Below are positions 7,864 to 56,701 of a stretch of DNA of 64,000 nt, one piece after another. The notes under the pieces are model-generated. The model was given only the letters and a program-made list of their open reading frames with translations. It had not been told where the DNA came from and searched no databases. A program made the position numbers and the translations under genes. Positions within the stretch are counted from its first letter, which is position 1, and each line of letters opens with the position of its first letter. Source of the stretch: a virus; the IMG/VR virus record IMGVR_UViG_3300002461_000812, positions 1 to 64,000 of that record; one strand, written 5' to 3'.

Positions 7864-8691
7864 ATGGACCAAAAAGCCAACAAATCCGACTCGGAAGAGA
7901 TCGAGAAGCTCCGTGCGGACCTGGAGCGGGAGCGCGCCACCAACCGGGCCGTCGAGGCCAGGGTCACCAGGTACGTCCGCGAACTGGAGCGCTCGAACGC
8001 CGAGTTGGAGCAGTTCGCCTACGCCGCCAGCCACGATCTCCAGGAGCCCCTGCGGATGGTGGTCCAGTTCGCCACCCTCCTGGAGCGCGACCTGCGGGCC
8101 CAGTTCCCCGAGGCCGTCACGGGCGATCTGGAGGTCTGCCTCAAGCACATGGGCAACGGCGCCGAGAGGGCCAAGAGGCTCATCGACGGGCTCCTCTCCT
8201 ACTCAAGGGTGGGGCGCCAAGCGGAGTTCGTCAGCGTGTCCCTGGATGGGGCGCTGGATGAAGCCATCGCGCTCCTCAACGGCGCCGTGACCGAGGCGGG
8301 CGCGGTCATCACCAGGGACCCGCTACCGGTCGTCTGGGGCGACATGGGGATGGTGTCCAGGGTCTTCTTGAACCTCATCACGAACGCCATCCGTTTCGCG
8401 AAGGATGGCGAGCCAGCTCGCATCCATGTCACATGCGAGGACCTGGGTGACGAACTGGAAGTGTCGGTGAGCGACTCGGGCATCGGCATCGACCCGCGTC
8501 ACGCCGAGCGCATCTTCACCATCTTCGCTCGTCTCAATCCCGAGAAGAACGGGACGGGCATCGGACTCGCGGTCTGCAAGAAGATCGTCGAAAAGCATGG
8601 GGGTCGGATCTGGGTGGAGTCGGTTCCAGGCCAGGGAGCGACCTTCAAGTTCACGCTCCTCAAGCAGGAGCCCGGCAACCCTGGCGTATGA
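7864..8691 (+). CDS. cytoplasmic sensor histidine kinase (coiled coil + HisKA + HATPase_c, with no TM or sensor domain)
   Basis: H-box FAYAASHDLQEPLR, N-box NLITNAIRFA, G1 DSGIGID, G2 GTGIGLAVCKKIVEKHGG. Only about 55 aa of coiled coil precede the H-box. Confidence 0.9.
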   Translation: MDQKANKSDSEEIEKLRADLERERATNRAVEARVTRYVRELERSNAELEQFAYAASHDLQEPLRMVVQFATLLERDLRAQFPEAVTGDLEVCLKHMGNGAERAKRLIDGLLSYSRVGRQAEFVSVSLDGALDEAIALLNGAVTEAGAVITRDPLPVVWGDMGMVSRVFLNLITNAIRFAKDGEPARIHVTCEDLGDELEVSVSDSGIGIDPRHAERIFTIFARLNPEKNGTGIGLAVCKKIVEKHGGRIWVESVPGQGATFKFTLLKQEPGNPGV

Positions 8692-9140
8692 CCATCACCA
8701 CCCCGCCAAAGAAGAACAAAGCCGATGTCCTCCTGGTCGAGGACAACGCGGCCGACGTGTACGTGACGCGGCTCGCCTTCGCGAAGGGCCGCGTTGCGGT
8801 GTCGCTTCACGTCGCAACGGACGGCGACGACGCCATGCACTTCCTTCGCAAGCAGGGGAAGTGGCTCGGTGCACCGCGTCCGGATCTCGTGATCCTCGAC
8901 CTCAACATGCCGCGTCGCAACGGGAGAGAGGTCCTCGCCGAGATGCGAGCTGACCCGTTGCTGCGCCGGATCCCGGTGGTGGTCTTGACCAGCTCGTCAG
9001 CAGACGCGGACATCTTCGACGTGTATGATCTCGGTGCGAACGCTTGCTTCACCAAACCAAGCGACTTCGATTCCCTCACCCAGATCGTCCTGACGTTGGA
9101 AGATTTGTGGTTCGTGCTCGGTCAGCTTCCGTCGAGGTGA
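8688..9140 (+). CDS. single-domain response regulator (CheY/Rcp1-like receiver)
   Basis: LLVEDN acidic pocket, DLVILDLNMP phospho-Asp, VVVLTSS and FTKP Lys. ATGA overlap with the kinase gene. Confidence 0.9.
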   Translation: MTITTPPKKNKADVLLVEDNAADVYVTRLAFAKGRVAVSLHVATDGDDAMHFLRKQGKWLGAPRPDLVILDLNMPRRNGREVLAEMRADPLLRRIPVVVLTSSSADADIFDVYDLGANACFTKPSDFDSLTQIVLTLEDLWFVLGQLPSR

Positions 9141-9144
9141 TGCC

Positions 9145-9972
9145 GTGACCACCTACTCCATCCTCCTGGTCGAGGACAACGCAGGCGACGCCGACTACAT
9201 CCAGCGCGCGCTCCGACGGAGCGAGGACGGTGTTCGGTTCGAGGTCTCGGTCGTTGGATGGCTGAACACGGCGCTCACCACCGTTGGGGCTAGGTCCTTC
9301 GATGCGGTCCTGCTCGACCTGTCCCTTCCGGACTCCCAGGGCCTCGACACCGTCGTCCAGTTCCTCGCCTCCGCTCCCCAGCTCCCGGTGATCGTCATGA
9401 CCGGTCACGACGACATGGTCACCGGGATCAACGCCGTCCGGTACGGTGCCCAGGACTACCTCATCAAGGGGGACACGGGGGACCGTTCCCTGGAGCGCTC
9501 GATCATCTACGCCATCGAGCGCAAGCGGGCCGACATGGTCGGCAAGAAGCTGCTCCGAGCGAGCATCGGAACGCTCTCCAGCGCGGGCGGTGGAGCGACA
9601 GCGCTCGTCCACGAGCACCTGGCACACGTTGCCGACTTCCTCCACGACCTGCGCGCGTACATCGCGCGCAACGCGCCCGCGCACGCGGACAGCATCGAAG
9701 CCATCGCCTCCAACCACCAGATCGACGTGGTGCTCAGGGAGATCAGGGCCATCGTCCAGATGGACGTGCAGTCCACGAGGCCGGGGACGGCGCGCCCCAA
9801 GAAGATCTCGGAGGAGGCGTTGCAGGCGGTGTCGTCCTTGTCCTCCGCCTCCGGAAGGCCGGTAGCTCCGTCCTCTGCGCGCGGAGCCCTGCTCTCGGTG
9901 ATCGAGTCGTCCGGCGAGATCGGAGAAAGGTACGCCGTTCCGGGCGTGAAAAATGGTTCCGACGATGAGTGA
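9145..9972 (+). CDS. response regulator: receiver domain plus a C-terminal helical region of about 150 aa with unknown function
   Basis: ILLVEDNAGD, DAVLLDLSLPD, VIVMTGH and DYLIKG. The C-terminus (HEHLAHVADFLHDLRAYI...) has no recognisable DNA-binding output. GTG start 4 nt after the preceding stop. Confidence 0.85.
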   Translation: MTTYSILLVEDNAGDADYIQRALRRSEDGVRFEVSVVGWLNTALTTVGARSFDAVLLDLSLPDSQGLDTVVQFLASAPQLPVIVMTGHDDMVTGINAVRYGAQDYLIKGDTGDRSLERSIIYAIERKRADMVGKKLLRASIGTLSSAGGGATALVHEHLAHVADFLHDLRAYIARNAPAHADSIEAIASNHQIDVVLREIRAIVQMDVQSTRPGTARPKKISEEALQAVSSLSSASGRPVAPSSARGALLSVIESSGEIGERYAVPGVKNGSDDE

Positions 9973-10522: not shown

Positions 10523-11963
10523 CGGCCGGCAAGCGGATGGCAGGGATGTACGGCTTCGACTCGTCGCCGACGACCGTCGGATCGATCCACCGGGTGAGGA
10601 TGGCGATCCACTCGTCCGGAGCCTTCGGCGGCTGCCCACGCTCCATGAGCTGGCGGTAGGCGTTCGAGGTCGGTTCGTCGATCGTCCAGACCTGGTACTC
10701 CGCCTCCTGGAGCTTCTGCGCGTCCTTCGTGGAGAGCGGCAGCTTCCCGCGCCGGATGTAGCAGCGCTCGTGGCCGCGTCGGTCGTGCCGGTACGCCAGC
10801 TCGCGAGAGATCTGCGCGAGAGCCTCACGCGAGCGCGCGCCCGAGTCCTCGATGAGCTTCTTCTCCATCCGGACCGTGTAGTAGGGCTTCGGGATGAGGC
10901 CCTGGACCTTGAGCCTCTTGCTCTTCTTGCCCCAGTCGTGGCGCTGGTTGTTGGTCAGCCGAGTCTCGATGACGAGCTGGCGGTGGTCGTTGACCACGGC
11001 CACCAGGTGCGTCGAGATCCAGGGCGCCATGTTCAGCACCGGGTGATGCCAGATCCCGTCCATGCACACGATGTTCGGCATGATGTAGTTGTCCTCCGGC
11101 TCGACGGCCTGGATGACCTCGACCACCCACCCGCCGGTCGGTCCGGTCCACACCACGTACCCGAGGATCGCCGCGGCGATGACCTCGCGGGCATCCATGC
11201 CGACGGCTCTCGCCTTCCACTGGTACTCAGCGAGAGAGACGCCGTGTCCGAGGCCGAAGTAGCAGGCGTCGAACGGGAGCGGATCGGGGAACGGAACCCG
11301 GGAGCCAGCCTCGTCGATCCGATCCGTGTACTGGTCGCTGTCCTCCTTCGAGGGCAGCTTGCCCTTGCCCAGGTCGGCCCAGTTCTGCTTCGCGATCTTC
11401 GTGGTCGTGTAGTGGTCGGCCGCCTCCCAGATGGTCGTGAAGTCGCTCGGCGAGAAGTCGAAGATGCGCGCGTTGCGCATGGTGGCCCAGAGCTGCCGAG
11501 CGAACTCCTTGCCACGGTCGATCGGTGCCCCGTCGAGAGTCCGGAGCGCACCGCTCTCGTCGCGGGCAGCCTGGAGCAACGACTCCATGATCCGGAGGTA
11601 CCCGGCGAGAGTCTCGTCGCCTGGCTTGTGCCGTCCCCTGCTTCCGATCGAGGCCGCGACGGCCGGCGTGCGCTTGGCCGCTGCATCGACCCGCGCGGCC
11701 ACCCGTTCGGCGGCCCGCTCACGGAGCCACCGGTACCGAGCTGGATCGGTCACCATCGCCCCGGTGAAGGCGAGCGCCAGGCGCTTGTGGAGGTGCTCGT
11801 TCAACCCCTGCACCGCGCGTGTGGTGGCGCTCTCGAAGGCGGCGTTGAGCGATGCCTGGACGCCGAGCTTGGTCAGCGCATCGACGTACCAGTCGGCCGC
11901 CTCGTCGATGGCGCGCTGCTCGGTCGCGGTGATGCCGAGGGCCTGTTCCACGGGGGTTCTCAC
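10467..11963 (-). CDS. hypothetical protein (498 aa)
   Basis: Protein-like part of ORF 10467..12065. GTG 11963 forms a GTGA overlap with the upstream stop (VRTPVEQALGITATEQRAIDEAADWY...). The 3' end converges on and overlaps 9965-10522. Confidence 0.7.
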   Translation of the reverse strand: MRTPVEQALGITATEQRAIDEAADWYVDALTKLGVQASLNAAFESATTRAVQGLNEHLHKRLALAFTGAMVTDPARYRWLRERAAERVAARVDAAAKRTPAVAASIGSRGRHKPGDETLAGYLRIMESLLQAARDESGALRTLDGAPIDRGKEFARQLWATMRNARIFDFSPSDFTTIWEAADHYTTTKIAKQNWADLGKGKLPSKEDSDQYTDRIDEAGSRVPFPDPLPFDACYFGLGHGVSLAEYQWKARAVGMDAREVIAAAILGYVVWTGPTGGWVVEVIQAVEPEDNYIMPNIVCMDGIWHHPVLNMAPWISTHLVAVVNDHRQLVIETRLTNNQRHDWGKKSKRLKVQGLIPKPYYTVRMEKKLIEDSGARSREALAQISRELAYRHDRRGHERCYIRRGKLPLSTKDAQKLQEAEYQVWTIDEPTSNAYRQLMERGQPPKAPDEWIAILTRWIDPTVVGDESKPYIPAIRLPAVSEAQPQSASAVGAPRES

Positions 11964-12556
11964 AGCTTCTCCTTCGCGGCCTGAGCGAGCTGGCCTTCGT
12001 AGTACCGGCGCTGCTTCTGGAGCTTCTTGAGGGCCGTCTCGGCGCGCTTGCGCTTCGACTCCCACTTGACGATCCGGGCCTCGATGGAGGTCAACTTCGT
12101 GACCCGTCTCTCCTCGATGGAGACCGACTTCTTCGTCGGCAGCGGTTCTTCCTTCACGACTTCGCCGTATCGGGCGAGGAGGTGGGCGTGCATTTCACCG
12201 GCGGCGGCCGTGCCTCTATCCGACCAGCGGTTGACGGCGTTGGGCATGGCGGCGTGGTGGACGCCGAACAGGTGGTAGACCTCGTGCCGGATCAGCCAGA
12301 TGAGCTGAGCGAGACTCACCTCATTGCGCGCGATCCGGATGCGGCACCAGCCCCCGCCCAGCGACGCTCGCCCCGAGCATCCGCCCCGGCGCGTGTAGAC
12401 GTACTCGACGTGGCAGTGCTCCCGGATGAACTCGGCCCGGCGCTTCGTAACGACCGGTAGGTCCTTCGAGAAGACGCGCTCCACATCGGAGACGACCGAC
12501 AGGAAGATCGAGCGCAGCATGACGCCCGAGTACCGGGTGGCGTTGGTGACCTTCAT
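11960..12556 (-). CDS. putative zinc metallopeptidase (HExxH, SprT-like)
   Basis: Internal ATG 12556 (MKVTNATRY...). LIRHEVYHLFGVHH contains HExxH, followed by a coiled-coil basic tail. Confidence 0.55.
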   Translation of the reverse strand: MKVTNATRYSGVMLRSIFLSVVSDVERVFSKDLPVVTKRRAEFIREHCHVEYVYTRRGGCSGRASLGGGWCRIRIARNEVSLAQLIWLIRHEVYHLFGVHHAAMPNAVNRWSDRGTAAAGEMHAHLLARYGEVVKEEPLPTKKSVSIEERRVTKLTSIEARIVKWESKRKRAETALKKLQKQRRYYEGQLAQAAKEKL

Positions 12557-12577
12557 GACTTCGAGTCCTCTCGTGCG
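12551..12577. repeat. gene-junction repeat, copy A
   Basis: 24 of 27 nt are identical to 12811-12837. Encodes AREDSKS-stop overlapping ATG-AAG. Confidence 0.8.
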
Positions 12578-12816
12578 ACCGCCTGCTCCCATAGGGTTTC
12601 GACGCCCTTGGCCCATCCCGCCGCGTATGCACGCAGCACTGCCGTTCGGTCTGCCGCGTTCATCTCGTACGTGCGGACACCCAGACCCACGAACAAGTCT
12701 CGTGCGCCTGAGCGCTTGCCGCGGACCCTCGCATTGTTGAAGCCCTCCGCTGACGCCAGAACGAGCAGCGATTGCAGTCGCTCCATCGTTAGGCCGATCT
12801 TGGTTCGTTCCTTCAT
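12553..12816 (-). CDS. hypothetical protein (87 aa)
   Basis: Internal ATG 12816 (MKERTKIGLTMERLQSLL...). ATGA overlaps on both sides. Ends AREDSKS. Confidence 0.65.
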   Translation of the reverse strand: MKERTKIGLTMERLQSLLVLASAEGFNNARVRGKRSGARDLFVGLGVRTYEMNAADRTAVLRAYAAGWAKGVETLWEQAVAREDSKS

Positions 12817-13874: not shown

Positions 13875-13902
13875 TTGACAGACTCATTTTAGACTGTAAG
13901 AT
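13875..13902 (+). promoter_or_regulatory. sigma70-like promoter TTGACA-N16-TAAGAT, leaderless
   Basis: CTTGACAGACTCATTTTAGACTGTAAGATgggtgcATG. Confidence 0.75.
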
Positions 13903-13908
13903 GGGTGC

Positions 13909-14685
13909 ATGGGCAAGACGACGAACAAGGGAACCTGCGGAGCCTGCTTCCGCTCGATGACGCTCGGCGCGGACGGCAAGGTCGTTCGCCACGGCTGGCG
14001 CGAGGCTGGCGGCACTCGCCGGGTCGGCAGCTACGGCCACGTCTTCCACTCCGGCGCCTGCTTCGGGGTCGGCTGGCTGCCCTACGAAGTCAGCTCGGAC
14101 TGCACGACGGCCTTCGTCGAGCAGGTGCTCTTCCCGATGGGCGTGAACGCCCAGGGCTACCTGACCCACCTGGCCACCCGCCCGGCGCTCGTCTACGAGG
14201 GCGCGACCTGGGCCGCGAACTTCACCGAGGTGCGCAACGCGCCCGGGTGTCGTGGTCACCGGGGCGGCTCGGACTACTGGGACGGCTACTACCGCTGGTC
14301 GCTCAAGCTCCGCGACGGCGACCCGGCCGTGACCCTCAAGAATCACCCCGAGAACTGGGGCGGGGACAAGGTCCCGAGCTACGACACCTACCTCGCGAGC
14401 AAGGTCAGCGACGGCCAGCGCACCTGGGAGGGGATCGCCAAGGACGCGCTCTACTGCCTCTCGATGGTGTCGAACTGGAAGCCGGTCGCGGTGAAGACGG
14501 TCGAGAAGAAGCTCCCCCTGCTCCACACGGGCCACACGAACTCCCTCTGGCTCGCTCGCTGCCGGATGACCTTCGGCCGGGGGCCCAGCCTCCGGGTCAC
14601 GCAGGTGGCCGCCGACGTGACCTGCCCGAAGTGCCTGGCCATCATGGCGAGGGAAGCGGAACGGGCCGCAAAGAAGTCGGCCTAG
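13909..14685 (+). CDS. hypothetical Cys-rich protein (258 aa), leaderless
   Basis: ORF track. GTCGACF...HSGACFG...CPKC. ATG lies 6 nt after the -10 element. Confidence 0.75.
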   Translation: MGKTTNKGTCGACFRSMTLGADGKVVRHGWREAGGTRRVGSYGHVFHSGACFGVGWLPYEVSSDCTTAFVEQVLFPMGVNAQGYLTHLATRPALVYEGATWAANFTEVRNAPGCRGHRGGSDYWDGYYRWSLKLRDGDPAVTLKNHPENWGGDKVPSYDTYLASKVSDGQRTWEGIAKDALYCLSMVSNWKPVAVKTVEKKLPLLHTGHTNSLWLARCRMTFGRGPSLRVTQVAADVTCPKCLAIMAREAERAAKKSA

Positions 14686-14689
14686 ACTC

Positions 14690-14717
14690 TTGACAGACGC
14701 AACCTATCGGCTATGAT
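14690..14717 (+). promoter_or_regulatory. sigma70-like promoter TTGACA-N16-TATGAT
   Basis: CTTGACAGAC...TATGAT, followed by the GAGAAGGAGA SD. Confidence 0.75.
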
Positions 14718-14738
14718 GGGAGAGAAGGAGACGGCGAC

Positions 14739-15065
14739 ATGAGAAGCACGGAGATCGAACTGGAGGTCGAGGTCGAGGTGGACGGAGCCATCGTCATGGC
14801 CACGGCTACGGTCGAGGTCAGCGGCGAGTACATGCCCGGGACCTGGGGTCCCAACGGCGGCGACCCGCCCGAGTACCCGGAGGCCGAGGTGGTCTCCCTC
14901 TCCTACAAGACCGAGGCGGGCGAGGAGCGCACGCTCTCTCTCGACCTGCTCACCGACAACCAGAACGAAGACCTCACCAACCGCGCCATCGAGCAGCGCG
15001 ACGACGGCCCCGACCCCGACTCCGACTGGGATTCCCGCTGCGACCGCGACGACTACGCCTACTGA
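14739..15065 (+). CDS. hypothetical acidic protein (108 aa)
   Basis: ORF track, GAGAAGGAGA SD, strongly acidic composition. Confidence 0.7.
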   Translation: MRSTEIELEVEVEVDGAIVMATATVEVSGEYMPGTWGPNGGDPPEYPEAEVVSLSYKTEAGEERTLSLDLLTDNQNEDLTNRAIEQRDDGPDPDSDWDSRCDRDDYAY

Positions 15066-15078
15066 GAAGCCAACGACC

Positions 15079-15657
15079 ATGACCACCACCGCCCACTCCT
15101 GCTCCTGCGGCACCTCGACCCCTCACGTCATCGCGCGTCGCATGACGGCCGACGGGATCGGCGTCGCGTTGCACCACGACGGGGCGGTCACCGGTCGATT
15201 CGGCTCCGGCCTCGCCGGGGTCCCGGTGGTGCGCCCCCGCACGAGCGAGGCTCGTGACCTGGCGCTCCGCGCGGGCTGGCTCTTTGCGGACGAGGTGTGC
15301 CTCTACGACTACTCCGAGCTGGGCGCGCTCTACGCGGCCTGCCGCTGGGCAGCCGCCCACGATGGGCTCCCTGGCACCGTCCGAGACCGGATGGCCAGGC
15401 CCGCACGCCTCACCCCGGTGTGGACGGTCGAGAGTGCCGACCGCGATGGTCGTCCGACCAGCCGCTACTGGCGCCTCCCGCGTCTCCTCTCGCCCGGCAC
15501 CGTGGTCTGGGACCACGTCAGCGTCGGCGCCTCGGGCGGTCGCTACGAGATCCACCGGACCGTGCGCGGTTCGCACGGAGAGACGTGCGTGCCCACGGGC
15601 ATCCGCTTTCACACGCTCGACGAGGTGTCGAGCTTCATCCTGTCGGAGAAGTCATGA
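15079..15657 (+). CDS. hypothetical protein (192 aa)
   Basis: ORF track with protein-like composition. Confidence 0.65.
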   Translation: MTTTAHSCSCGTSTPHVIARRMTADGIGVALHHDGAVTGRFGSGLAGVPVVRPRTSEARDLALRAGWLFADEVCLYDYSELGALYAACRWAAAHDGLPGTVRDRMARPARLTPVWTVESADRDGRPTSRYWRLPRLLSPGTVVWDHVSVGASGGRYEIHRTVRGSHGETCVPTGIRFHTLDEVSSFILSEKS

Positions 15658-15968
15658 CGAAGAAGACCTGGTTCGAGCTGGAGAGCCACACCGGAGAGGT
15701 GCTCTGTCGCCTCAATCCCGACCTCTCCGTTCACCCCATTCGCGCCAACAGGCGTCGGCACTTTGCTAAGCGGTCCTACGGCTACTCCGTTGTGGAGTTC
15801 AAGACCGAGAAGTCGGCAAAGCTCTGCGCCGCGAAGCTCTTCGCGTCAGGTCGTGCCGACTTGCCGAAGTTCATCGTCGTCGTCCGGTTCGAGCCCACCG
15901 TCAACCGCACCACCCCGTTCATGTTCCGAAACCCCAAGGCTCCGCCCGCCAAGAAGCGCGCAGCCTGA
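15654..15968 (+). CDS. hypothetical protein (104 aa)
   Basis: Internal ATG 15654 of ORF 15297..15968 with an ATGA overlap (MTKKTWFELESHTGEVL...). Confidence 0.65.
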   Translation: MTKKTWFELESHTGEVLCRLNPDLSVHPIRANRRRHFAKRSYGYSVVEFKTEKSAKLCAAKLFASGRADLPKFIVVVRFEPTVNRTTPFMFRNPKAPPAKKRAA

Positions 15969-15997
15969 GCAGAAGCAGATCAAGGAGAAGCAGACCC

Positions 15998-17506
15998 ATG
16001 TCCAAGTTCACCCTTCCGATCAAGTCCACCTACGTCAGCTCGTGGGGCCTCTGGGAGTGCCTCCGAGAGATGGTCCAGAACGCCAAGGACGAGGAGGACC
16101 AGAACGGTCACGCGATGGCCGTCGAGTGGAAGCCGACCGCCGCGATGCCGGGGCCTGCCGTGGGCCAGGTCTGGCGAAACGGCTCGGTCACGATCGAGAT
16201 CCTCGAAGTCACCGACACGCACGTGATCTCCGCGTACTCGCGCACCTCGCTTCGCCAGTGGGAGAGCTGGGTGAACGGTGATGCGGTCGGTCAGCCGAAG
16301 CTCGACGGCTTCGACCGCCCGGGTCTCCTCACCCTCCGGAACGAGGGCGCAGACATGGACCGCAAGGCCCTCCTGATCGGTCACTCCGGCAAGGCCGGCA
16401 GCGACCTGCGCGGCAAGCACGGCGAGGGCCTGAACCTCGCTCTCCTCGCGGGCGTGCGCCTCGGGCGCAAGATCCTCATCGAGACGAAGACCGAGCGCTG
16501 GACGCCGACCATCGGCTACGCCGAGGAGTTCGGTGCGAACTGCCTCTCCATCGCCACGCGCGCACGCAAGTCGGCGGGCCCTGGCGTCGCGGTCACCATC
16601 GAGGTCACCGAAGGCGAGTGGGCCAAGTACCGCGACCGCTTCATCTTCCTCTCGAACATCCCGGACAACCGTGTCGTCCGGATCCCGGACCAGGGCTCCA
16701 TCCTCCTGGAGGAGAGTCGCAAGGGCTGCGTCTACGTCCGCGGCATCTACGTGGACACGCTCCCGAAGCTCGAAGCCGGGTACGACCTGACGCAGATGAC
16801 CCTCGACCGCGACCGCCGGATGATCGACGTGTGGGACCTCCAGTGGCGCCTCGGGCAGATGTACCAGGACGCGATGGCGCGTCGCCCCGAGCTGCTCGGC
16901 GGACGGGTCTACAAGATGCTCCGCGACGGGTCCGAGGACACCAAGGGCTTCCACTACCACGCGACCAAGGAAGCGGCGGCAGCCCTGGCGATCGAGTTCC
17001 GCACCGAGCACGGGGACGACGCTGTCCCGGTCGCGTCGATCGCCGAGGCTCGCGAGCTGGAGCACCTGGGTCGCCGCGGTGTCGTCGTCCAGGACGCCCT
17101 GCGCGACTCCCTCAAGAAGGAGATGGGCGACATCTCCGAGATCAAGACCAAGCTCAAGAACGAGGTCGTCCGCTCGGTTCCATGGGCCGACCTGGCCTTC
17201 GAGCACAAGGCCATCTTCACCCAGTACACCACGCTCATCGACTCGCTCGGCGCGATCCCGACGCCGGTCGCCCAGCGCATCGACATCGTCGAGTTCCGAG
17301 ACCCTCGCATCGAGGGGCTCTGGCAGGGAGACAACGGCCGGATCAGCATCGCGCTCCGGATGCTCGACGACCCGCGCGGCCTCCTCAAGGTCCTGGTTCA
17401 CGAGGTGGCTCACGCGGTGTCCGAGGCGGGCGATGGTCACCACGGTCACACCGAGTCCATCGAGGACCTCTGGGCGAAGCTCTACTTCCGCCGCACCGCT
17501 TCGTGA
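15998..17506 (+). CDS. GHKL-type ATPase domain protein with a C-terminal HExxH motif
   Basis: N-box-like ECLREMVQNAKDE, NEGADMD, and Gly-rich GKHGEGLNLAL. C-terminal LVHEVAHAVSEAGDGHHGH (HEVAH at 17399-17413). Strong AAGGAGAAGCAG SD. Confidence 0.6.
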   Translation: MSKFTLPIKSTYVSSWGLWECLREMVQNAKDEEDQNGHAMAVEWKPTAAMPGPAVGQVWRNGSVTIEILEVTDTHVISAYSRTSLRQWESWVNGDAVGQPKLDGFDRPGLLTLRNEGADMDRKALLIGHSGKAGSDLRGKHGEGLNLALLAGVRLGRKILIETKTERWTPTIGYAEEFGANCLSIATRARKSAGPGVAVTIEVTEGEWAKYRDRFIFLSNIPDNRVVRIPDQGSILLEESRKGCVYVRGIYVDTLPKLEAGYDLTQMTLDRDRRMIDVWDLQWRLGQMYQDAMARRPELLGGRVYKMLRDGSEDTKGFHYHATKEAAAALAIEFRTEHGDDAVPVASIAEARELEHLGRRGVVVQDALRDSLKKEMGDISEIKTKLKNEVVRSVPWADLAFEHKAIFTQYTTLIDSLGAIPTPVAQRIDIVEFRDPRIEGLWQGDNGRISIALRMLDDPRGLLKVLVHEVAHAVSEAGDGHHGHTESIEDLWAKLYFRRTAS

Positions 17507-17507
17507 G

Positions 17508-17535
17508 TAGACAGACTCACGACACACTGTAAGAT
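17508..17535 (+). promoter_or_regulatory. sigma70-like promoter TAGACA-N16-TAAGAT, leaderless
   Basis: GTAGACAGACTCACGACACACTGTAAGATggcgccATG. 28 of 37 positions are identical to 13875-13911. Confidence 0.6.
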
Positions 17536-17541
17536 GGCGCC

Positions 17542-17796
17542 ATGACGATCTCGAAAGACGAGCGAGCCACCACCAGCATCCTTCGGGAGAACAGCTTCCC
17601 GGTGGCCGCAGTCGAGGGTGAGTACAAGGGCGAGCGCCGGGTCTTCCTCTGCCTCATGGGCAGGGACAAGGAGGGCAAGCTCGCCATCGAGGCTCCCCTC
17701 GCGATGCTCCTGTCCGAGGACGACTTCAAGGACATCAAGAACCACGAGGGCACCGGGCTGGCCCAGCCCTCCAGGATCATCCTGGCCAAGGGCTAG
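17542..17796 (+). CDS. hypothetical protein (84 aa), leaderless
   Basis: ORF track. ATG lies 6 nt after the -10 element of promoter 17508-17535. Confidence 0.7.
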   Translation: MTISKDERATTSILRENSFPVAAVEGEYKGERRVFLCLMGRDKEGKLAIEAPLAMLLSEDDFKDIKNHEGTGLAQPSRIILAKG

Positions 17797-17813
17797 CGCA
17801 CCAAGGGGGGAAC

Positions 17814-18116
17814 ATGATCACGAACGCCGAGCTGAGATCGCTGGTCCTATCCGAGGACACGGTGGTGTCGTCTCTCGCAGCCGAAGTGATCCAGGCCCGC
17901 AAGGACCTGCTCCATGACCGTCGCCGGTGCGCTGAGTTGGCCGGAGCCGTCAGTCACGAGGCCGGGGCCGCCGTGCGGGAGTACGCGCAGGACTGCGAGT
18001 GCTCCTACATCACGGGTGAGACGCTTTCGCGTGATCCGGCGAATCAGCTACCATCGGGCTCGTGGCAGATCCCGAGGTCAAGTGGATCCAGTTCCGGTCG
18101 TATTCGGGACCGGTGA
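17814..18116 (+). CDS. hypothetical protein (100 aa)
   Basis: ORF track, GGGGGGAAC upstream. The last ~20 aa overlap the next gene and look low-complexity. Confidence 0.5.
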   Translation: MITNAELRSLVLSEDTVVSSLAAEVIQARKDLLHDRRRCAELAGAVSHEAGAAVREYAQDCECSYITGETLSRDPANQLPSGSWQIPRSSGSSSGRIRDR

Positions 18117-19084
18117 TCAACGCAGGGGCGCCCGTCGGACCACCGAGGTCCGGTCACGCCCAGCGAGCCTACTGGTTGACGACGAAGGTCGAAACCGGCG
18201 GAGTTCTCGGCAAGGTGATGGCCTACGACGGCACCTGCATGACGGCGGGGCCGGACCAGCACATCGCCGTCTACCCGAAAGAGTTGTCCGAGGAGGACTG
18301 GCGCGCTGAGGACGACCAGGGCTCGCTTTGGAGTCTTCTCGCACGTCTGCTCCGCGTCCGTGGATCCGACTCCCAGCTCGCCGCCCATTTCGACGCGCTG
18401 CTCTCCGAGCTGGCGTCCGACGGGTTCCGCGTGGGAACGGATGGGCGCCTCGTCTACGCCGCCGACCGGCAGGTCACCGTGGGTGAAGTGGTCGTTCGCG
18501 TCAGGGCCGGAGAGCTTGCGCACGGCAACGTCATCCGAGACACGTACACCGGCCCGTCCGACGGGAAGGTTCCTTCGTCCGGTCCGTACTGGGAGAAGGC
18601 AAAGCGCTGGGCGCTCCTCTGGCATCGGATCACGGTCCACCCGGCGGCACGCCAGGTCCAGCTCGACTACGGCATCGACCACCTGGTGAAACGGACCCGG
18701 ACACGGAAGATCGCCGATCTGGGCACCGTGGACGCCGTGCTCTACGGTCCCCAGAACGTCATGTCGGCCAACGGGCTCGACCCGGCGCTCGACCTGGCCG
18801 CGTGCGTGTTCCACTCCCACTCGGTGAACGGTCCGAGTCCGGCGGTTCGAGCCCTCGCCGAGGCGGCTCGTGCGCACCCGCGCACGAAGGACCCGGTCGC
18901 GTTCGCGCGGGACCTGCTCATCAGGCTCGGGAACAACGACTACGGACGCTGGGACGACGACGTGAAGAGCGGGCGTTGGCAGCGCACGCGCACCCACGCG
19001 ATGAACTCCGGTCTCTGGCCTGAGCGACTGTTTCTCGGCGAGTCCGCGGTGATGCCGCTCGACCTTCCTGACGAAGAGGAGTGA
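18062..19084 (+). CDS. hypothetical protein (340 aa)
   Basis: ORF track with a GTG start and balanced composition (MADPEVKWIQFRSYSGPVINAG...). Confidence 0.7.
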   Translation: MADPEVKWIQFRSYSGPVINAGAPVGPPRSGHAQRAYWLTTKVETGGVLGKVMAYDGTCMTAGPDQHIAVYPKELSEEDWRAEDDQGSLWSLLARLLRVRGSDSQLAAHFDALLSELASDGFRVGTDGRLVYAADRQVTVGEVVVRVRAGELAHGNVIRDTYTGPSDGKVPSSGPYWEKAKRWALLWHRITVHPAARQVQLDYGIDHLVKRTRTRKIADLGTVDAVLYGPQNVMSANGLDPALDLAACVFHSHSVNGPSPAVRALAEAARAHPRTKDPVAFARDLLIRLGNNDYGRWDDDVKSGRWQRTRTHAMNSGLWPERLFLGESAVMPLDLPDEEE

Positions 19085-19087
19085 TCG

Positions 19088-19657
19088 ATGGAGGCTATCG
19101 CAACGCCGCTGTCACTGGTCGAGTACGAGGCGCACCGAAGTGCTCGCGTCACCCGGCTCAAGACCGAGGCGGCAAGACCAGAGGCGGTGGTACGCGAGAT
19201 CGCGAAGATCGTCAGGTGGCTCGGGACAGAGCAGCCGATGGAAGCCATCGGTCCCATCCACGGGATCTACAGCGACGGAGCGTTCGCTCTTCACGCCGGG
19301 GCCTACGTCCTCCGCACCGTCGTCCACACGGCAACGGGGAAGCCGGCCATCCAGCTCGTGAAGATCGAGGACCCCATCGACGGGCGGGACTCGGAACTGT
19401 TCCTCCGGATCGTCGATCGGGTACTCCAAGGCCAGGTGCTCACCTCGTGGGAGGCGCCCGACTGCTTCTCGGTCGCGCTCAAGGTCAGGGTCCACCCGAC
19501 GCTCGTCCGGACCGTGACCCACAACTACCGGACCATGGCCTGCTCGGGTGCCCGCGAGAGGAACTCGAAGAGCGGCTGTCCGATCTCCTGCGGTGACTGC
19601 CCGTACCGCTTCGACCGCCAGGCCAAGTTCATCGTCCCGCCCGGCTGGCACATCTGA
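19088..19657 (+). CDS. hypothetical protein (189 aa)
   Basis: ORF track. GAGGAG SD lies upstream of the ATG. C-terminal CSG...CPISCGDCP cluster. Confidence 0.7.
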   Translation: MEAIATPLSLVEYEAHRSARVTRLKTEAARPEAVVREIAKIVRWLGTEQPMEAIGPIHGIYSDGAFALHAGAYVLRTVVHTATGKPAIQLVKIEDPIDGRDSELFLRIVDRVLQGQVLTSWEAPDCFSVALKVRVHPTLVRTVTHNYRTMACSGARERNSKSGCPISCGDCPYRFDRQAKFIVPPGWHI

Positions 19658-19718: not shown

Positions 19719-19927
19719 GGGTCTTGCGCGCTTTTGCGGCCCTGAGTAGACCGATCGTCCGCCTCAGCTTCGGATACACCAGCCCCGCCACGCCGAGGGG
19801 GAAACTCGGCGCGGAGGTTCGGGCGTTGGTGCGCCCAAGCTGGAGGTCACGAAAGCCAGGGTACGTGACGCTGACCGATGTATCTCAAGCCGATCCTTCA
19901 TGCAACGTATCGTCACGCAGTGTCATC

Positions 19928-21220
19928 ATGTCGATGGCCGCGAAGAAGCCTCGGAGGAGAACCCCCCCGAAGGATCCCGCGTTCGTCCGTGAGCGACGCC
20001 TACTAGATGAAGGAGGAAGAAACTCCTCAACCATACGCAGTCCATGGGGAAGTGCGGACGGCGTCGAGGGGAGGGAGACGTACTACTCCGGGGGCTACAG
20101 CGACAACCTGCTCCAGTGGAAGGGGCTGGTGGGACGCTTCTGGTCCGAGATGCTCAAGGACATCGAAGAGCCCTCTCTACGGACCGCTCTCTCCAAGCGA
20201 CTGGAGTCTTTCCTCACCTGCGGGAAGGCCGTCTCTGTCCGGAGGTGCGGCGGGTGCCAGACCGACAGGGAGGGCAGCGGCACCTTCCGTGGAACGAGGA
20301 CCTGCAAGACCAGAGCGTGCCCTGTCTGCTCGAAGCTCCGGTCAGAGCGCTACTCCGAGTGGGTCGAGTCCGCCTGGTCCCTCATGGAGGCGCGGCCGGG
20401 GTACGCGTGGCGGTGGCTGACCCTCACGACGAAGTACGACCCCTACTCCAAGGAGGACGCCTCCTGGCAAAGCCTGCGAGGGCGCGCGCGGGCATGCGCG
20501 AAGGCGGCCGAGAAGGTCTGGACCAAGCTCCTCAAGGGCAAGGGCGGTGAACTCAGTACAGGCGCGATCCGGACGATCGAGGTCGCGCGCCGGGGAATGG
20601 TCCACGTCAACCTGGTCTACTTCGGCCCGGCGCTCGACATCGACGAGGTCGAGGCGCTGATCTCGAAGGTCTCCCCCCACATGGGCCACGCCCACTTCCA
20701 GAAGGTGAACCGCAAGCCTGCGCCGCCTGAACTCAGTTCCGACGGTCGGAAGAAGAAGCGGCCGAAGGGCGACGAGGAGTTCGAGCTGGACGAGTCGGAC
20801 GAGCGCGGCTCGCTCGAAGGGCTCAAGCGGGTGGCGAAGTACATCTCCAAGGGCCTCGACCACGAGACCAGCTCCATGAAGATGCGAGACGAGGACTGGG
20901 TGACGGGAGCCCAGCCGGTGGTGACGGTGGATCCGGAGCTGGCGGTGGCGTGGGAGTTCGCGACCTACAAGATGCACCTGGTCCAGCGGTACGGCGCGCT
21001 CCGGAAGCTGGAGCTGGACGAGCACGCGGAGAAGTCGAAGTCGGACAACGAGGACGACGCCCACATCGCCTGTAAGTGCTGCGGCGCCGTGGGAAAGTGG
21101 AAGACGGGCTTCCGCTCGACCCGGGAGTGGTTCGGCGAATGCCACGAGCGAGGCATCAAGGCGTTGCACGGAACGCCGGATGACTGGCTGCCGAGAGACT
21201 GGGTAGAGCTGAACTCTTGA
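19928..21220 (+). CDS. HUH-type rolling-circle replication initiator-like protein (Rep_1/pC194-like motifs) with an N-terminal zinc ribbon
   Basis: Motif 1 WRWLTLTTKYD, motif 2 GMVHVNLVYFGP, motif 3 LKRVAKYISKGLDHE, plus CGGC...CKTRACPVC. Start set at ATG 19928 because the in-frame stretch upstream has poor third-position GC. Confidence 0.6.
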   Translation: MSMAAKKPRRRTPPKDPAFVRERRLLDEGGRNSSTIRSPWGSADGVEGRETYYSGGYSDNLLQWKGLVGRFWSEMLKDIEEPSLRTALSKRLESFLTCGKAVSVRRCGGCQTDREGSGTFRGTRTCKTRACPVCSKLRSERYSEWVESAWSLMEARPGYAWRWLTLTTKYDPYSKEDASWQSLRGRARACAKAAEKVWTKLLKGKGGELSTGAIRTIEVARRGMVHVNLVYFGPALDIDEVEALISKVSPHMGHAHFQKVNRKPAPPELSSDGRKKKRPKGDEEFELDESDERGSLEGLKRVAKYISKGLDHETSSMKMRDEDWVTGAQPVVTVDPELAVAWEFATYKMHLVQRYGALRKLELDEHAEKSKSDNEDDAHIACKCCGAVGKWKTGFRSTREWFGECHERGIKALHGTPDDWLPRDWVELNS

Positions 21221-22152: not shown

Positions 22153-22203
22153 GAGTCCTGAGAGAGACACTACCGCCCCGGCTTGAGCCGGAAGGAGAAC
22201 GCG

Positions 22204-24312
22204 ATGGGTATCGGAGACATGGTTCGTGAGGCTTCCGGTGGTTCGGCCAAGAGCGAGGCAGAGATCCTCAGCGGCCTGAACCCGGAGCAGACTGAGGTGG
22301 TCCTCCACGACAAGGGTCCGATCCTCGCGGTCGCGGTAGCAGGAGCCGGAAAGACGGCCGCCATCGTGCGCCGGATGGGCTACCTGGTGAAGATGCGAGG
22401 GGTGAACCCCGGTCGCATCCTCGCGGTCACGTTCTCCCGCAAGGGCGCGGACGAGATGAACGAGCGCCTCGAAGCGCTCATCGGGAAGTCGGATGCCCGG
22501 GTCGGCACCTTCCACTCCCTCGGGCTGGAGGTCTGCAAGAAGGAGATCGACCTGGAGGACTGGACGATCGACGACCGGGACCGCTACCGGATCTGCATCA
22601 AGGACGCCGTCTCCTACAAGGAGATGAAGTGGGAGAAGGCGGACGCCACTCTCATCGCGAGCTTCATCGGCCTCTGCAAGGCGAACCTCGCGCGTCCCTT
22701 CTCGGACACGGCCATCGAGATCGCCCAGGGCATCTACCGGGCGAGCCCCAAGCAACAGGCCATCCCGCAGAAGCTCAACCAGGCGTACGAGGTCGCCGAG
22801 CGACTCCGCCGAGACCGCCGGCTTCTGACCTTCGACGACATGCTCCTCGACTCGGTCGAGCTGTTCCAGCGCGACGACTCGGTCCGCGCTCGCTGGGCGA
22901 GCCGCTGGGACTACGTCATCCAGGACGAGGCCCAGGACCAGAACCTCGCGCAGCTCATGATGGGCGAGTTGCTCGCCAAGGATCACCGGAACTACTGCCT
23001 GGTCGGCGACCCCGCCCAGACCATCTACACCTGGCGCGGCGCGCAGCCGACCAAGCTCCTAGGGTTCGAGCAGAGCTGGGGCGCGAAGGTCGTGCGGATG
23101 GGCCGGAACTACCGGTGCGGCTCGACCATCATCGACGCGGCGAACAAGTCGCTCGACGCGATGGACCCGGAGCAGCGCCTCCCGATCGCGATGATCGCCG
23201 AGCGCGGGGTGGAAGGCGAGGTCATCGCCAAGGTGTTCGAGGACCTCGACGCTGAGGGCGAGGAGATCGCCCACAAGGTCCTCTCGATGGTCGAGGACGG
23301 GTCGAAGTACAGCGACTTCGCGGTGCTCTACCGGACCAACGCTCAGTCCCGCGCGGTCGAAGAGTCGATGCTCTCCAGCCGCATCCCCTACCGCATCATC
23401 GGGGGCACGAACTTCTACGAGCGACGCGAGGTCCGCTCGCTCCTCTCCTACCTCCGCCTGGCCGACGGCCGTGGGACGTTCGAGGACATCGAGCGCTGCA
23501 TCAACGCGCCCTTCCGGTTCCTCGGCCGGGCCTTCGTGGATCGCGTGACCGACGCGGCCAAGGAGATGATGAACGGCAGCTCGAAGATCGACTGGGCCAC
23601 CCTGGTCCGGGATGTCGCCATGGGAGCCGGCGTCCAGTCCCGCCAGAAGGAGTCGGTCTACGAGTGGGCTAACCTCATCGAGCGCACCGCCAAGCGCATC
23701 CAGCTCGCTGGCGAGACCGAGAGCCCCGAGGTCAAGGACGCCGGCAAGCCGGCCCGGCTCCTGGAGGAGATCGTCCACGTCACCCGCTACACCTCGTGGC
23801 TGGAGAAGGACGAGGGCGAGGAGACCACCGAGAACAGCCGCGTGAGCAACGTCCGCGAGCTGATCCGAGCGGCGACCCGGTTCCCGAACGTGAAGGAACT
23901 GCTCGACTACATCGAGAACGTCGGCCGCAAGGCGGCGAGGGCGCGCAAGGACACCCAGCCGAACAAGGTGACCCTCACCACGCTCCACCGGAGCAAGGGC
24001 CTGGAGTGGCCGGTGGTGTTCCTCTGCGGTGTCTCCCAGGGCATCCTCCCGCACGCGCGGTGCGAGGACATCGAGGAGGAGCGCCGGCTCTTCTACGTGG
24101 GCGTCACCCGCGCGCGCGACACCCTCCACGTCAGCTCGGTGCTGAACGTCAGCCTGGGCTCGAAGGTCATCGTGACCGAGCCCTCGGACTTCATCCGGGA
24201 GGCAGGGATCACCCCGGTCTATGTGCTCGCCAAGGGCGACCTTCGGCACCACGACCAGGACGCCGCCAACGATGCGGTGGTCGGAGCGGCAGCGGACGAC
24301 TGGGAGGACTGA
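22204..24312 (+). CDS. UvrD/PcrA/Rep-family SF1 DNA helicase
   Basis: LNPEQ...AGAGKTAAIV (I), VIQDEAQDQN (II), TLHRSKGLEWPVVF (V), YVGVTRAR (VI). ATG 22204 follows GGAAGGAGA. Confidence 0.9.
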   Translation: MGIGDMVREASGGSAKSEAEILSGLNPEQTEVVLHDKGPILAVAVAGAGKTAAIVRRMGYLVKMRGVNPGRILAVTFSRKGADEMNERLEALIGKSDARVGTFHSLGLEVCKKEIDLEDWTIDDRDRYRICIKDAVSYKEMKWEKADATLIASFIGLCKANLARPFSDTAIEIAQGIYRASPKQQAIPQKLNQAYEVAERLRRDRRLLTFDDMLLDSVELFQRDDSVRARWASRWDYVIQDEAQDQNLAQLMMGELLAKDHRNYCLVGDPAQTIYTWRGAQPTKLLGFEQSWGAKVVRMGRNYRCGSTIIDAANKSLDAMDPEQRLPIAMIAERGVEGEVIAKVFEDLDAEGEEIAHKVLSMVEDGSKYSDFAVLYRTNAQSRAVEESMLSSRIPYRIIGGTNFYERREVRSLLSYLRLADGRGTFEDIERCINAPFRFLGRAFVDRVTDAAKEMMNGSSKIDWATLVRDVAMGAGVQSRQKESVYEWANLIERTAKRIQLAGETESPEVKDAGKPARLLEEIVHVTRYTSWLEKDEGEETTENSRVSNVRELIRAATRFPNVKELLDYIENVGRKAARARKDTQPNKVTLTTLHRSKGLEWPVVFLCGVSQGILPHARCEDIEEERRLFYVGVTRARDTLHVSSVLNVSLGSKVIVTEPSDFIREAGITPVYVLAKGDLRHHDQDAANDAVVGAAADDWED

Positions 24313-54864: not shown

Positions 54865-54865
54865 C

Positions 54866-56701
54866 GTGGCAAGTAAGCAGCGCTCCCTCAGTGAGGGTTT
54901 CATCCAACAGGTCGGCCAAGGGATTCGGCGTTTTTTCGCCCGATCCCCGGAGGTCGTTGCGGCCGACCTGCGTCGCGGTGGAATGCCGTCCGTGGAGCGC
55001 GCCGGGCTCCCGTTCAACCTAGCGTCGGCCTTCGGGCACGATGGTCTCGCGGAGCACCTGCGGATCGACCAGGATCTCATGGCCCGCTACGCGGACTACG
55101 AGGAGATGGACGAGTACCCGGAGATCAGCTCCGCGTTCGACATCTACGCCGACGACTCGACCATGCCGGACATGGAGGAGTCCAAGTCGATCTGGGTCAC
55201 GTCCGAGAACGAACAGGTCGCCAAGGAACTCGACATGGTCCTGCACAAGCGGATCATGGTCGAGGACGACATCTGGGGGCTGAACCGGACGCTCGGGAAG
55301 TACGGCAACGCCTACGGCGAACTGATCATCGCCGAGCAGGGTCTCGTCGGCATCAACTACCTGCCCCCGCCGACCTGCCGTCGCGTCGAGGACCCCAAGG
55401 GCAAGCTACTCGGGTTCGTGCAGGACGTGCGCGGCGAGTTCAACCTCTCCTTGGAGGACTTCTACCAGATCGCCAAGGAGCAGAACGGAGGGTCGAACCT
55501 TCGTGGCCGCGGGCCAGGCGAGATGACGGTCTTCGAGGACTGGGAGCTGATCCACTGGCGCTTGCGCGGCAAGCACATGCGGTCGGTCTACGGCCACGGC
55601 GTGGCGGACCCGGCGCGGTGGGTCTGGAAGCGGCTCGCCCTCCTGGAGGATGCGATCCTCATCTACAAGCTCTCGCGCGCGCCCGCGCGGTACGCCTTCT
55701 ACATCGACGTGGGCGAGCTGGATAACGTCCGCGGCCTCGCGTACGTGAACCAGGTCAAGAACAACTTCATCAAGAAGAAGTTCATGAACCCCCAGACGGG
55801 GAAGCTCGACATGCGGCACAACCCGCTGTCGATGGACGAGGACTTCTTCGTCCCGTCCCGCAACGGCAAGGACTCGACGCGCATCGAGGTGCTCCAGGGC
55901 CCCGACTACGCCGAGGTGGACACGCTGGAGTACCACCGGGACAAGCTGGTCGCGGGCCTCAAGGTGCCCAAGACCTACCTCGGCTTCGGAGGGGAATCGA
56001 CGCGGGCCTCTCTCTCGTCCGAGGACATCCGGTTCGCGCGCACCGTCATGCGGATTCAGCGTGAGACGAGGTCCGGGTTCCGGCGCGCACTGCGGGTGCA
56101 TCTCGTGGCCATCGGGGCGGACGCCGAGCGGCTCGACTTCGATGTCCAGATGTCGGTCCCGTCGGCCATCCTGGAGCTGGCGAAGCTGGAGGTCCTGAGC
56201 GCGACGGCTGACGTGGCGCAGCGCATGGGCGAGCAGGTGAGCACTCGATGGATCCTCACGAAGCTCTACAAGTTCTCTGAGGAAGAGGCCGCCAAGCTCA
56301 TGGACGAGCGCGAAGAAGAGCAGCTCCGCAGGGGCGAGGCGGACGCCAACATCATGGCGATGCAGGCCCAGGCCCAGCAGGGCGGCGAGGGTGGCGAAGG
56401 GGCTCCGCCGGAGGACGAAGAGGGGCAGGATGGCGGCCCCGAACAGCAGGTTGCCTCGGCAAAGAGGCCGAACAAGAAGGCCCTGGCCGAGCGCAAGAGC
56501 GGGCACCCGTGGAGGGGCAAGCGGCTCTCCGAGATCATGATCGCGCGTCGCGACAACTGGCGCGCCGAGTTCGAGGGCAAGAGCCCCGGCCGCTACGGCG
56601 AGGACAAGCTCGCGGGCATCTTGAAGAACGACAAGGCGCTCGGTCGCCGTCTCAAGTCGATCGAGGGTATGCTCGGGGACATCCAGAACACGTTGCGGTG
56701 A
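54866..56701 (+). CDS. portal protein
   Basis: 611 aa, directly after terL and upstream of the protease and capsid genes. GTG 54866 lies 2 nt after the terL stop. Acidic C-terminus. Confidence 0.7.
   Translation: MASKQRSLSEGFIQQVGQGIRRFFARSPEVVAADLRRGGMPSVERAGLPFNLASAFGHDGLAEHLRIDQDLMARYADYEEMDEYPEISSAFDIYADDSTMPDMEESKSIWVTSENEQVAKELDMVLHKRIMVEDDIWGLNRTLGKYGNAYGELIIAEQGLVGINYLPPPTCRRVEDPKGKLLGFVQDVRGEFNLSLEDFYQIAKEQNGGSNLRGRGPGEMTVFEDWELIHWRLRGKHMRSVYGHGVADPARWVWKRLALLEDAILIYKLSRAPARYAFYIDVGELDNVRGLAYVNQVKNNFIKKKFMNPQTGKLDMRHNPLSMDEDFFVPSRNGKDSTRIEVLQGPDYAEVDTLEYHRDKLVAGLKVPKTYLGFGGESTRASLSSEDIRFARTVMRIQRETRSGFRRALRVHLVAIGADAERLDFDVQMSVPSAILELAKLEVLSATADVAQRMGEQVSTRWILTKLYKFSEEEAAKLMDEREEEQLRRGEADANIMAMQAQAQQGGEGGEGAPPEDEEGQDGGPEQQVASAKRPNKKALAERKSGHPWRGKRLSEIMIARRDNWRAEFEGKSPGRYGEDKLAGILKNDKALGRRLKSIEGMLGDIQNTLR

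Follow-up and report, generated by a model that had tools for sequence, protein, structure and literature searches.

The gene at positions 15998 to 17506 (+ strand) of the 64,000-nucleotide window analysed here, which covers positions 1 to 64,000 of the IMG/VR virus record IMGVR_UViG_3300002461_000812, encodes a soluble protein that, judged from structure models and sequence profiles, consists of an N-terminal GHKL-type ATPase head, a conserved middle region and a C-terminal zincin domain of the Wss1/selecase kind. A GHKL ATPase and a minimal zincin are each of a known kind; here the two are combined in one very abundant family of phage proteins. We read the protein as a nucleotide-gated Wss1-like protease made early in infection, and assign this reading a probability of about 0.5. 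An earlier note, prepared from the DNA alone, had described the gene as an early-expressed fusion of a GHKL ATPase with an HExxH region. The open reading frame (ORF) and every motif quoted in it are present where it had placed them, with HEVAH at exactly 17399-17413, and Foldseek and profile evidence supports both folds of the proposed fusion. The features of the gene are as follows.

15998..17506, + strand: whole gene, ATG-initiated ORF, 502 amino acids, 56 kDa, pI 6.1, soluble product
15982..15987, + strand: Shine-Dalgarno sequence AAGGAG, 10 nt 5' of the ATG, read from the sequence
15998..16642, + strand: GHKL (Bergerat-fold) ATPase head, residues 1-215, with a conserved N-terminal strand at residues 2-9
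16055..16093, + strand: N-box ECLREMVQNAKDE, residues 20-32, with E24 as putative general base and N28 as putative Mg2+ ligand
16136..16321, + strand: in-frame insert, about residues 47-108, preceded by the strand after the N-box helix and followed by the G1 strand
16340..16360, + strand: NEGADMD at the G1-box position, residues 115-121
16373..16444, + strand: ATP lid and G2 box, residues 126-149, L-IGHSGK132AG...RG139KHG142E143G144LNLAL
16412..16444, + strand: GKHGEGLNLAL, residues 139-149
16643..17182, + strand: middle region, residues 216-395, with a beta-rich part, the DRDR(R/K)M loop, a helical bundle and a small alpha/beta unit
16805..16822, + strand: DRDR(R/K)M loop, residues 270-275, invariant
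17183..17503, + strand: minimal zincin domain, residues 396-502, with one helix, a three-stranded sheet, the active-site helix and a C-terminal helix
17393..17449, + strand: LVHEVAHAVSEAGDGHHGH, residues 466-484, which includes HEVAH
17399..17449, + strand: metal-site motif H468-E469-x-x-H472-x6-D479-G-x3-H484, conserved among 208 relatives

Relatives of the protein were collected in two ways. A word-based search retrieved 64, mostly of 435-460 amino acids, and an exhaustive profile search yielded 6,423 representatives at E<=1e-3 and 1,937 at E<=1e-30; these are 50%-identity cluster representatives, and all conservation counts given below come from an alignment of 208 of them. No member of the family bears a functional name, the database labels being only 'hypothetical protein' or 'histidine kinase-like ATPase'. 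When the window protein alone was searched against Pfam, NCBIfam, PADLOC and the PDB, nothing rose above threshold; its only Pfam match is SprT-like over residues 448-485 (12.2 bits against a cut-off of 25.6), and its sole PHROGs match is phrog_6077, of unknown function (E 1.3e-44, residues 109-379). The AlphaFold2 model of the whole chain, built with the 64 relatives, has a predicted local distance difference test score (pLDDT) of 89.5, falling below 50 only at residues 59-98, and a predicted template-modelling score (pTM) of 0.80, which suggests a fixed arrangement of the domains, as coupling of the head and the zincin would need. No transmembrane segment is present, the maximum 19-residue hydropathy being 0.97.

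The assignment of the C-terminal domain rests on agreement between fold, profile and conservation. The last 112 residues, modelled alone from 34 sequences, reach a pLDDT of 96.8, and their structural neighbours in Foldseek are all zincin catalytic domains, namely selecase, proabylysin, projannalysin, YbeY and IrrE/PprI (probability 0.8-1.0, TM 0.5-0.6); among them the selecase and abylysin matches have probabilities of 0.97-1.0 at TM 0.5-0.6, and YbeY (1oz9) one of 0.95. The C-terminal end of the whole-chain model likewise matches selecase in the PDB. By sequence profile the best PDB match is Wss1p (E 0.009), in an alignment that spans the first helix, the sheet and the HExxH helix, and Pfam SprT-like is matched by 35 of the 64 relatives (best E 5.4e-4, all under threshold). 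The earlier note had allowed for an HExxH lying in a helix of a structural protein; the fold matches to selecase, proabylysin, projannalysin and IrrE, together with the Wss1 profile, place it instead in a zincin catalytic fold, on the active-site helix, with H468, E469 and H472 all on the modelled helix 459-475.

The residues of the putative metal site are conserved in 89-99% of the aligned relatives (H468 in 202, E469 in 205, H472 in 202, D479 in 202 and H484 in 185 of 208). An HExxH would be expected by chance in 0.03 of proteins with the same length and composition, and since the motif is conserved across 208 diverse relatives it is more than a chance occurrence. In common with Wss1/WLM, SprT/SPRTN and minigluzincin proteins, the domain is a minimal zincin by fold and carries HExxH on its active-site helix. 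The motif itself differs: in Wss1 it reads HExxH-x5-H, with the last His six residues after the second, whereas in the phage family it reads HExxH-x6-D-x4-H. Candidates for the third metal ligand are D479 (+7, 202/208), which falls one residue before the Wss1 His in the profile alignment, and H484 (+12, 185/208). Unlike Wss1 and SPRTN, the phage protein has no separate DNA-binding or ubiquitin/SUMO-binding module, and its zincin comes fused to a GHKL head instead of having an AAA+ partner; Wss1 and SPRTN cooperate with the ATPase Cdc48/p97. From the model and the conserved motif, the C-terminal domain is apparently an active minimal zinc protease.

The window also encodes a second, stand-alone HExxH protein (11960-12616, - strand, 218 amino acids) with the motif RHEVYHLFGV. 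Its strand-turn-helix resembles that of the zincin described above (hhalign E 0.0034 over 29 columns, probability 9%), a resemblance suggesting that the phage may carry two small zincins.

The N-terminal part has the features of a Bergerat fold. A Foldseek search of the PDB relates the N-terminal half to topoisomerase VI-B, MORC2, MORC4 and ParE/GyrB (probability 0.9-1.0, E 2e-4 to 8e-3; 1.0 and 2e-4 to 8e-4 for the best of these matches), topoisomerase VI-B chains being the top matches, and the order of secondary-structure elements in the AlphaFold2 model is consistent with this fold. Among viral models, unnamed members of its own phage family rank first (E 1e-25 to 1e-11) and rIIA proteins come next (E 1e-6 to 1e-3). 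The family profile aligns with MORC2 residues 33-138, pairing the N-box, the G1 position, the lid and the G2 box, with the lid set against the 'FGKSAK' of MORC2. When relatives were scanned singly, 36 of the 64 matched HATPase_c (all below 26.4 bits, best E 5e-5) and 10 of the 64 the MORC-type HATPase_c_3, under its curated cut-off; the window protein itself matches neither Pfam model. The Bergerat fold that the earlier note had proposed is thus supported both by structural matches and by the profile matches of relatives, and a result showing its absence was not obtained. The head shares with its best solved-structure matches, the MORC, topoisomerase VI-B, GyrB and ParE proteins, the overall fold and, with MORC2, a 'GKSAK'-type lid, at modest E-values (2e-4 by fold, 0.03 by sequence); in contrast to these proteins it has Asn for the G1 Asp and lacks a CW domain, a coiled coil, a Toprim domain and a partner subunit.

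Most of the nucleotide-binding signature is close to invariant. The N-box ExxxNxxD corresponds to E24-x3-N28-x2-D31 (E24 in 203, N28 in 207 and D31 in 207 of 208) and aligns to the N-box of MORC2; in the lid, G128 and K132 are each present in 208/208; and the G2 box GxxGxG is G139-K-H-G142-E-G144, with G139 in 208, G142 in 205, E143 in 203 and G144 in 208 relatives. The motif NEGADMD, which the earlier note had taken for a GHKL motif, does occupy the position of the G1 box but is without the Asp that defines that box. The DxGxG pattern is incomplete, its first Gly being kept (Gly117) and its second not, and the place of the Asp is taken by Asn115, which in the model lies at the end of strand 109-116, the site of the DxGxG Asp, and is aligned with the Asp of 'RDFGPG' in T4 rIIA and with the first D of 'DDGAG' in MORC2, which we take to be D68. 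With an invariant general-base Glu, Mg-binding Asn, lid Lys and G2 box, the head is expected to retain nucleotide binding, possibly with altered recognition; on the bolder proposal given further below, the Asn shared by the family could point to a gate that answers to some nucleotide other than ATP.

One further hit falls in the head: the PADLOC model of the 'Vsr' nicking endonuclease weakly matches two of the 64 relatives (E 8e-4; in P0038 at residues 161-240, the strand-rich end of the head). This match is probably spurious.

Between the head and the zincin, the middle region may be transducer-like. Foldseek alignments extend into it for MORC4 (414 columns, with a weak TMt of 0.41) and also for ParE, the middle region matching weakly (TM 0.2-0.4). 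Its most conserved element is the DRDR(R/K) loop (D270 in 203, R271 in 198, D272 in 201 and R273 in 208 of 208), a candidate sensor that, going by this conservation, may sense the gamma-phosphate. The middle region is common to short forms of the family such as gp71 of phage PaMx11.

These short forms are true homologues over the head and the middle region. They belong to phrog_6077, which includes PaMx11 gp71, Ab18 ORF34 and the Vibrio and Acinetobacter proteins labelled 'histidine kinase-like ATPase', and they share with the window protein the N-box, the lid Lys, the G2 box, an ERDR/DRDR loop and a residue other than Asp at G1; PaMx11 gp71 (360 amino acids) aligns with residues 3-375 at an hhalign probability of 100% (E 5e-39). 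In cultured phages they are of about 360-390 amino acids and lack the zincin domain. Such shorter relatives are the only ones found in cultured phages, which infect Pseudomonas (the PaMx11/Ab18 group), Vibrio, Acinetobacter, Erwinia and E. coli (rV5-like), and no cultured phage record covers at least 80% of the query. Escherichia phages A73, A5-4 and 4MG, which grow on E. coli K-12 MG1655, carry a short form. In a tree of the shared core the short forms make up one clade (24 rows, support 99), sister to the long forms. The window protein lies within a clade whose members all have HExxH (support 99), beside a relative at 75% identity (L007).

All long contigs that were inspected look phage-like, with lengths of 37 to about 600 kb. 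A scan of 185,579 prokaryote species, one genome each, gave a single match, on a 183-kb phage-like contig binned with a Phycisphaerae metagenome-assembled genome. On these grounds the family looks phage-specific, a limited statement since the cellular scan used only two narrow peptide patterns.

At the upper end of the size range, one family member (L003, positions 8001-9365 of the 600,485-bp ENA contig contig_10361) has as its neighbours a TPR protein, an FtsK/SpoIIIE-like ATPase and small genes without annotation, which number in the dozens. A megaphage or another giant mobile element could be the source of this contig.

Early expression, which the earlier note had also proposed, finds indirect support in the promoters around the gene. 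Between 12500 and 22500 we count seven promoters of the sigma-70-like type, all with a spacer of 16 nt, where shuffled sequence would lead one to expect 0.5; they include the following.

13260, - strand: sigma-70-like promoter, 16-nt spacer
13875-13902, + strand: sigma-70-like promoter, 16-nt spacer, which opens the gene block
14690..14717, + strand: sigma-70-like promoter TTGACA-16 nt-TATGAT, the nearest upstream of the transcription unit that ends with the GHKL-zincin gene
17508..17535, + strand: sigma-70-like promoter TAGACA-16 nt-TAAGAT, directly after the stop codon
21532 and 22125, + strand: further sigma-70-like promoters, 16-nt spacer

Promoters of this type, suited to a host-type polymerase, flank the transcription unit and fit an early gene. 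Because the next promoter directly follows its stop codon, the gene is the last cistron of a short unit. At 13875 and 17508 the promoter ends some 6 nt short of an ATG, a distance that points to leaderless mRNAs. The description of the surrounding block (13909-19657) as nine genes of unknown function is broadly right, Pfam searches of the eight neighbouring small genes having returned nothing.

In the mechanism that we favour, the head would bind and hydrolyse a nucleotide and thereby drive an open-closed, probably dimerising, cycle of the GHL type, in which the N-terminal strand (residues 2-9) and the lid would take part in closure over the nucleotide and the DRDR(R/K) loop may report on its gamma-phosphate. 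The cycle would capture a protein target, or expose it to the zincin site, where E469 would act as the general base in its cleavage. The target would most likely be a host protein, or a protein on replicating DNA, whose early removal the phage needs. That the head hydrolyses nucleotide, that the protein dimerises, that the two activities are coupled and what kind of substrate is cleaved are all inferred here.

Several observations weigh against this interpretation. The position that binds adenine is Asn in 191, Ser in 9, Thr in 8 and Asp in none of the 208 relatives. The DxGxG Asp hydrogen-bonds the adenine N6 in GyrB, MutL, Hsp90 and MORC2, and changing the Asp at the same position to Asn (D79N) abolishes ATP binding in yeast Hsp90; since the Asp is replaced throughout the family, ATP binding is not assured and the ligand may differ. 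Every Pfam match, of the window protein and of its relatives, falls under the gathering thresholds. The protease motif has decayed (to EExxH, HAVAV and similar) in long forms at about three places on the core tree, and the whole sister clade is without the zincin domain, so that proteolysis is not essential to the core function of the family. The neighbourhood of replication genes is lineage-specific, no neighbour cluster occurring in more than 9 of 83 loci. Finally, the protein has no evident basic DNA-binding region, the pI of its domains being 5.6-6.9, which argues against direct binding to DNA and weakens the version in which the target is DNA-bound.

A role in host takeover or counter-defence, as the earlier note suggested, is plausible. 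Early expression and a phage-specific, patchy and repeatedly degenerating distribution fit a host-directed or conflict role, and the setting in a replication module, along with the kinship to Wss1, fits the removal of DNA-bound proteins. A bolder proposal is that the protein represents a new class, in which a dimerising GHKL clamp, and not an AAA+ ring, gates a Wss1-like zincin and is used early to strip or destroy DNA-bound proteins or host defence proteins, as a one-polypeptide viral counterpart of Cdc48/p97 with Wss1 or SPRTN; we put this forward tentatively, as a doubtful extension. To our knowledge, the characterised energy-dependent proteases (Lon, FtsH, Clp, HslUV and the proteasome) are all powered by AAA+ motors. 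The fusion of a GHKL head with an intact zincin would be a distinct solution, and not a rare one, given thousands of 50%-identity clusters in large phages, where the family provides one of the few recognisable enzymes of otherwise opaque early-gene blocks. It ties together the GHL ATPases of immunity (MORC, Tiamat), proteases that act on DNA-protein crosslinks (Wss1, SPRTN) and the long-unexplained GHKL proteins of the phage rIIA type; a defined substrate would reveal what phages must degrade right after entry, and the systematic loss of the adenine-binding Asp poses a testable question on GHKL ligand specificity. Our literature search turned up no account of a fusion between a GHKL ATPase and an active zincin, in phages or otherwise. 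A protein considered in the course of that search (PMC5336643) is unrelated and has 150 amino acids.

Three alternatives seem to us about equally unlikely, and the first of them starts from the rIIA matches noted above. The protein might be a distant functional analogue of T4 rIIA that protects the phage against abortive-infection or exclusion systems, the head serving as a sensor or switch and the C-terminal domain as a variable module of the rIIA type. T4 rIIA is itself a phage-encoded protein with a GHKL head of similar fold, alignable with the family over the N-box, G1, lid and G2, and rIIA proteins combine this head with a highly variable C-terminus (PMC7824862). Moreover, the present phage has a T4-like portal and no recognisable rIIA, the rIIA profiles phrog_612 and phrog_2979 giving no match at E<=1 in the whole 186-kb genome. 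The same absence counts the other way when the gene itself is considered, its only PHROGs match being phrog_6077 and its hhalign probability to T4 rIIA 3.4%. T4 rIIA is also larger (about 700-800 against 502 amino acids), keeps the G1 Asp that the phage family has lost and has rIIB as its partner, whereas no adjacent partner of the rIIB kind is conserved among the 83 loci, a statement based on the neighbour comparison, as the rIIB profile was not searched separately. Membership of the rIIA family is rejected on the missing profile matches, the hhalign probability and the length.

A second alternative is suggested by the anti-phage system Tiamat, whose TmtA models in PADLOC are matched by 29 of the 64 relatives (best E 6e-9). 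Tiamat is a GHL ATPase-nuclease with ATPase and single-stranded-DNA nuclease activities; it falls into a group with SACSIN and Hsp90 and not with MORC, its relatives including SACSIN and NO VEIN, and it contains TPR-like folds, a PD-(D/E)xK nuclease and a Wss1-like metalloprotease fold that is without HExxH and was judged inactive (bioRxiv 10.64898/2026.09.30.754977, where sequences of fewer than 900 residues were excluded). The pairing of a GHKL head with a Wss1-like fold is therefore precedented, as Tiamat has both. The phage protein, however, is a third of the size of Tiamat, lacks the TPR and nuclease parts, has an apparently complete metal site and is encoded by phages and not by their hosts. 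Its relation might be antagonistic: a miniature relative of the head could poison dimers of Tiamat-like proteins as a decoy, or the zincin could cleave a Tiamat-like or other defence protein. The early-type promoters would suit such a role, as would the distribution of the family, since patchy occurrence and repeated loss of a motif are typical of conflict genes and the single match among the prokaryote species genomes is on a phage-like contig. Phage and plasmid zincins such as ArdC are, besides, linked to anti-restriction. Even so we consider the proposal improbable, because the similarity is limited to generic GHKL motifs in a stretch of about 70 residues, N-box through G2, in TmtA profiles that are 1,063-1,655 positions long, and the window protein itself has no PADLOC match; nor is there a link between the hosts of these phages and Tiamat, which is rare in prokaryotes (bioRxiv 10.64898/2026.09.30.754977), unlike the very abundant phage family. 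Membership of Tiamat proper is rejected since the architecture differs (GHKL, a DUF3684/TPR-like middle and PD-(D/E)xK in more than 900 amino acids) and the match is confined to the head.

The third alternative takes the core rather than the zincin as the active part. In a chaperone or assembly factor of the Hsp90 kind, the head and the middle region would help phage proteins or replication complexes to fold or assemble, and the zincin would mainly bind clients or be catalytically silent. The universal conservation of the head-plus-middle core, the clade that does without the zincin domain, the loss of HExxH in several long forms and the occurrence of a phage 'HSP90 family chaperone' model among the fold matches are all in keeping with this proposal, as is the reported inactivity of the Wss1-like fold in Tiamat (bioRxiv 10.64898/2026.09.30.754977). 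We give it a low probability, considering that the His and Glu residues of HExxH and D479 are intact in the window protein and in about 97% of the 208 long-form relatives, which would be unexpected for a pseudoenzyme, and that no co-chaperone-like partner is conserved. Least probable is a subunit of a topoisomerase or other DNA machine, that is, a topoisomerase VI-B- or MORC-like clamp with a C-terminal metal site acting on nucleic acid like the zincin-fold RNase YbeY: the top PDB fold matches of the head, the YbeY match of the C-terminal domain and the replication and recombination genes nearby point in that direction, but no Toprim or Spo11-like partner is conserved nearby in the 83 loci, which makes a topoisomerase subunit unlikely, no basic region is evident, and the Glu that is invariant in HExxH marks a peptidase and is not known from the YbeY motif.

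The window makes up the initial 64 kb of a virus record that is 186,003 bp long and has direct terminal repeats; the window has about 65% G+C. Downstream of the gene block it encodes the Rep_1-like protein with a zinc ribbon, the UvrD helicase, further helicases, DnaB and a UvsX-like recombinase, and further on the portal.

19724-21220, + strand: Rep_1-like protein, 498 amino acids, with sub-threshold matches to Rep_1 (rolling-circle initiator) and to the IS91-type zinc ribbon
22183-24312: UvrD helicase, just downstream of the Rep_1-like gene
54830-56701, + strand: portal protein, gp20-like (T4-type)

Rep proteins link covalently to DNA, and for this reason a Wss1-like protease close to a Rep_1-like gene is suggestive. 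This pairing is common only to the closest relative (L006), however, and the local gene order only to the two nearest relatives. When all six-frame ORFs of the 83 loci were clustered, no conserved partner gene emerged besides the family itself and antisense shadow ORFs, and the operon or multi-gene system that we considered is rejected on the low frequency of every neighbour cluster given above. The clusters that do recur are lineage-specific and include DUF932, a DinG-type helicase, SSB, RecU, UvrD, Gp157 and GP88. That genes of replication and recombination recur in the neighbourhood is evidence by association, and weak. The portal is closest, among cultured phages, to those of Flavobacterium phage immuto and Microcystis phage Mel-JY01 (32-34% identity), and megablast found no nucleotide-level relative of the phage among 50,697 phage records; it is a lineage without a close cultured relative.

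The window protein differs from the rest of its family by the in-frame insert in the head. It is 57 amino acids longer than its nearest relative, and the insert is missing from every aligned relative. An origin as a mobile or repeated element is rejected, the genome being without a second copy. The segment has an ordinary codon composition and is modelled with a pLDDT below 50. The window protein and the cluster representative P0001 differ at two residues only, A79G and S81T, both of which lie inside the insert.

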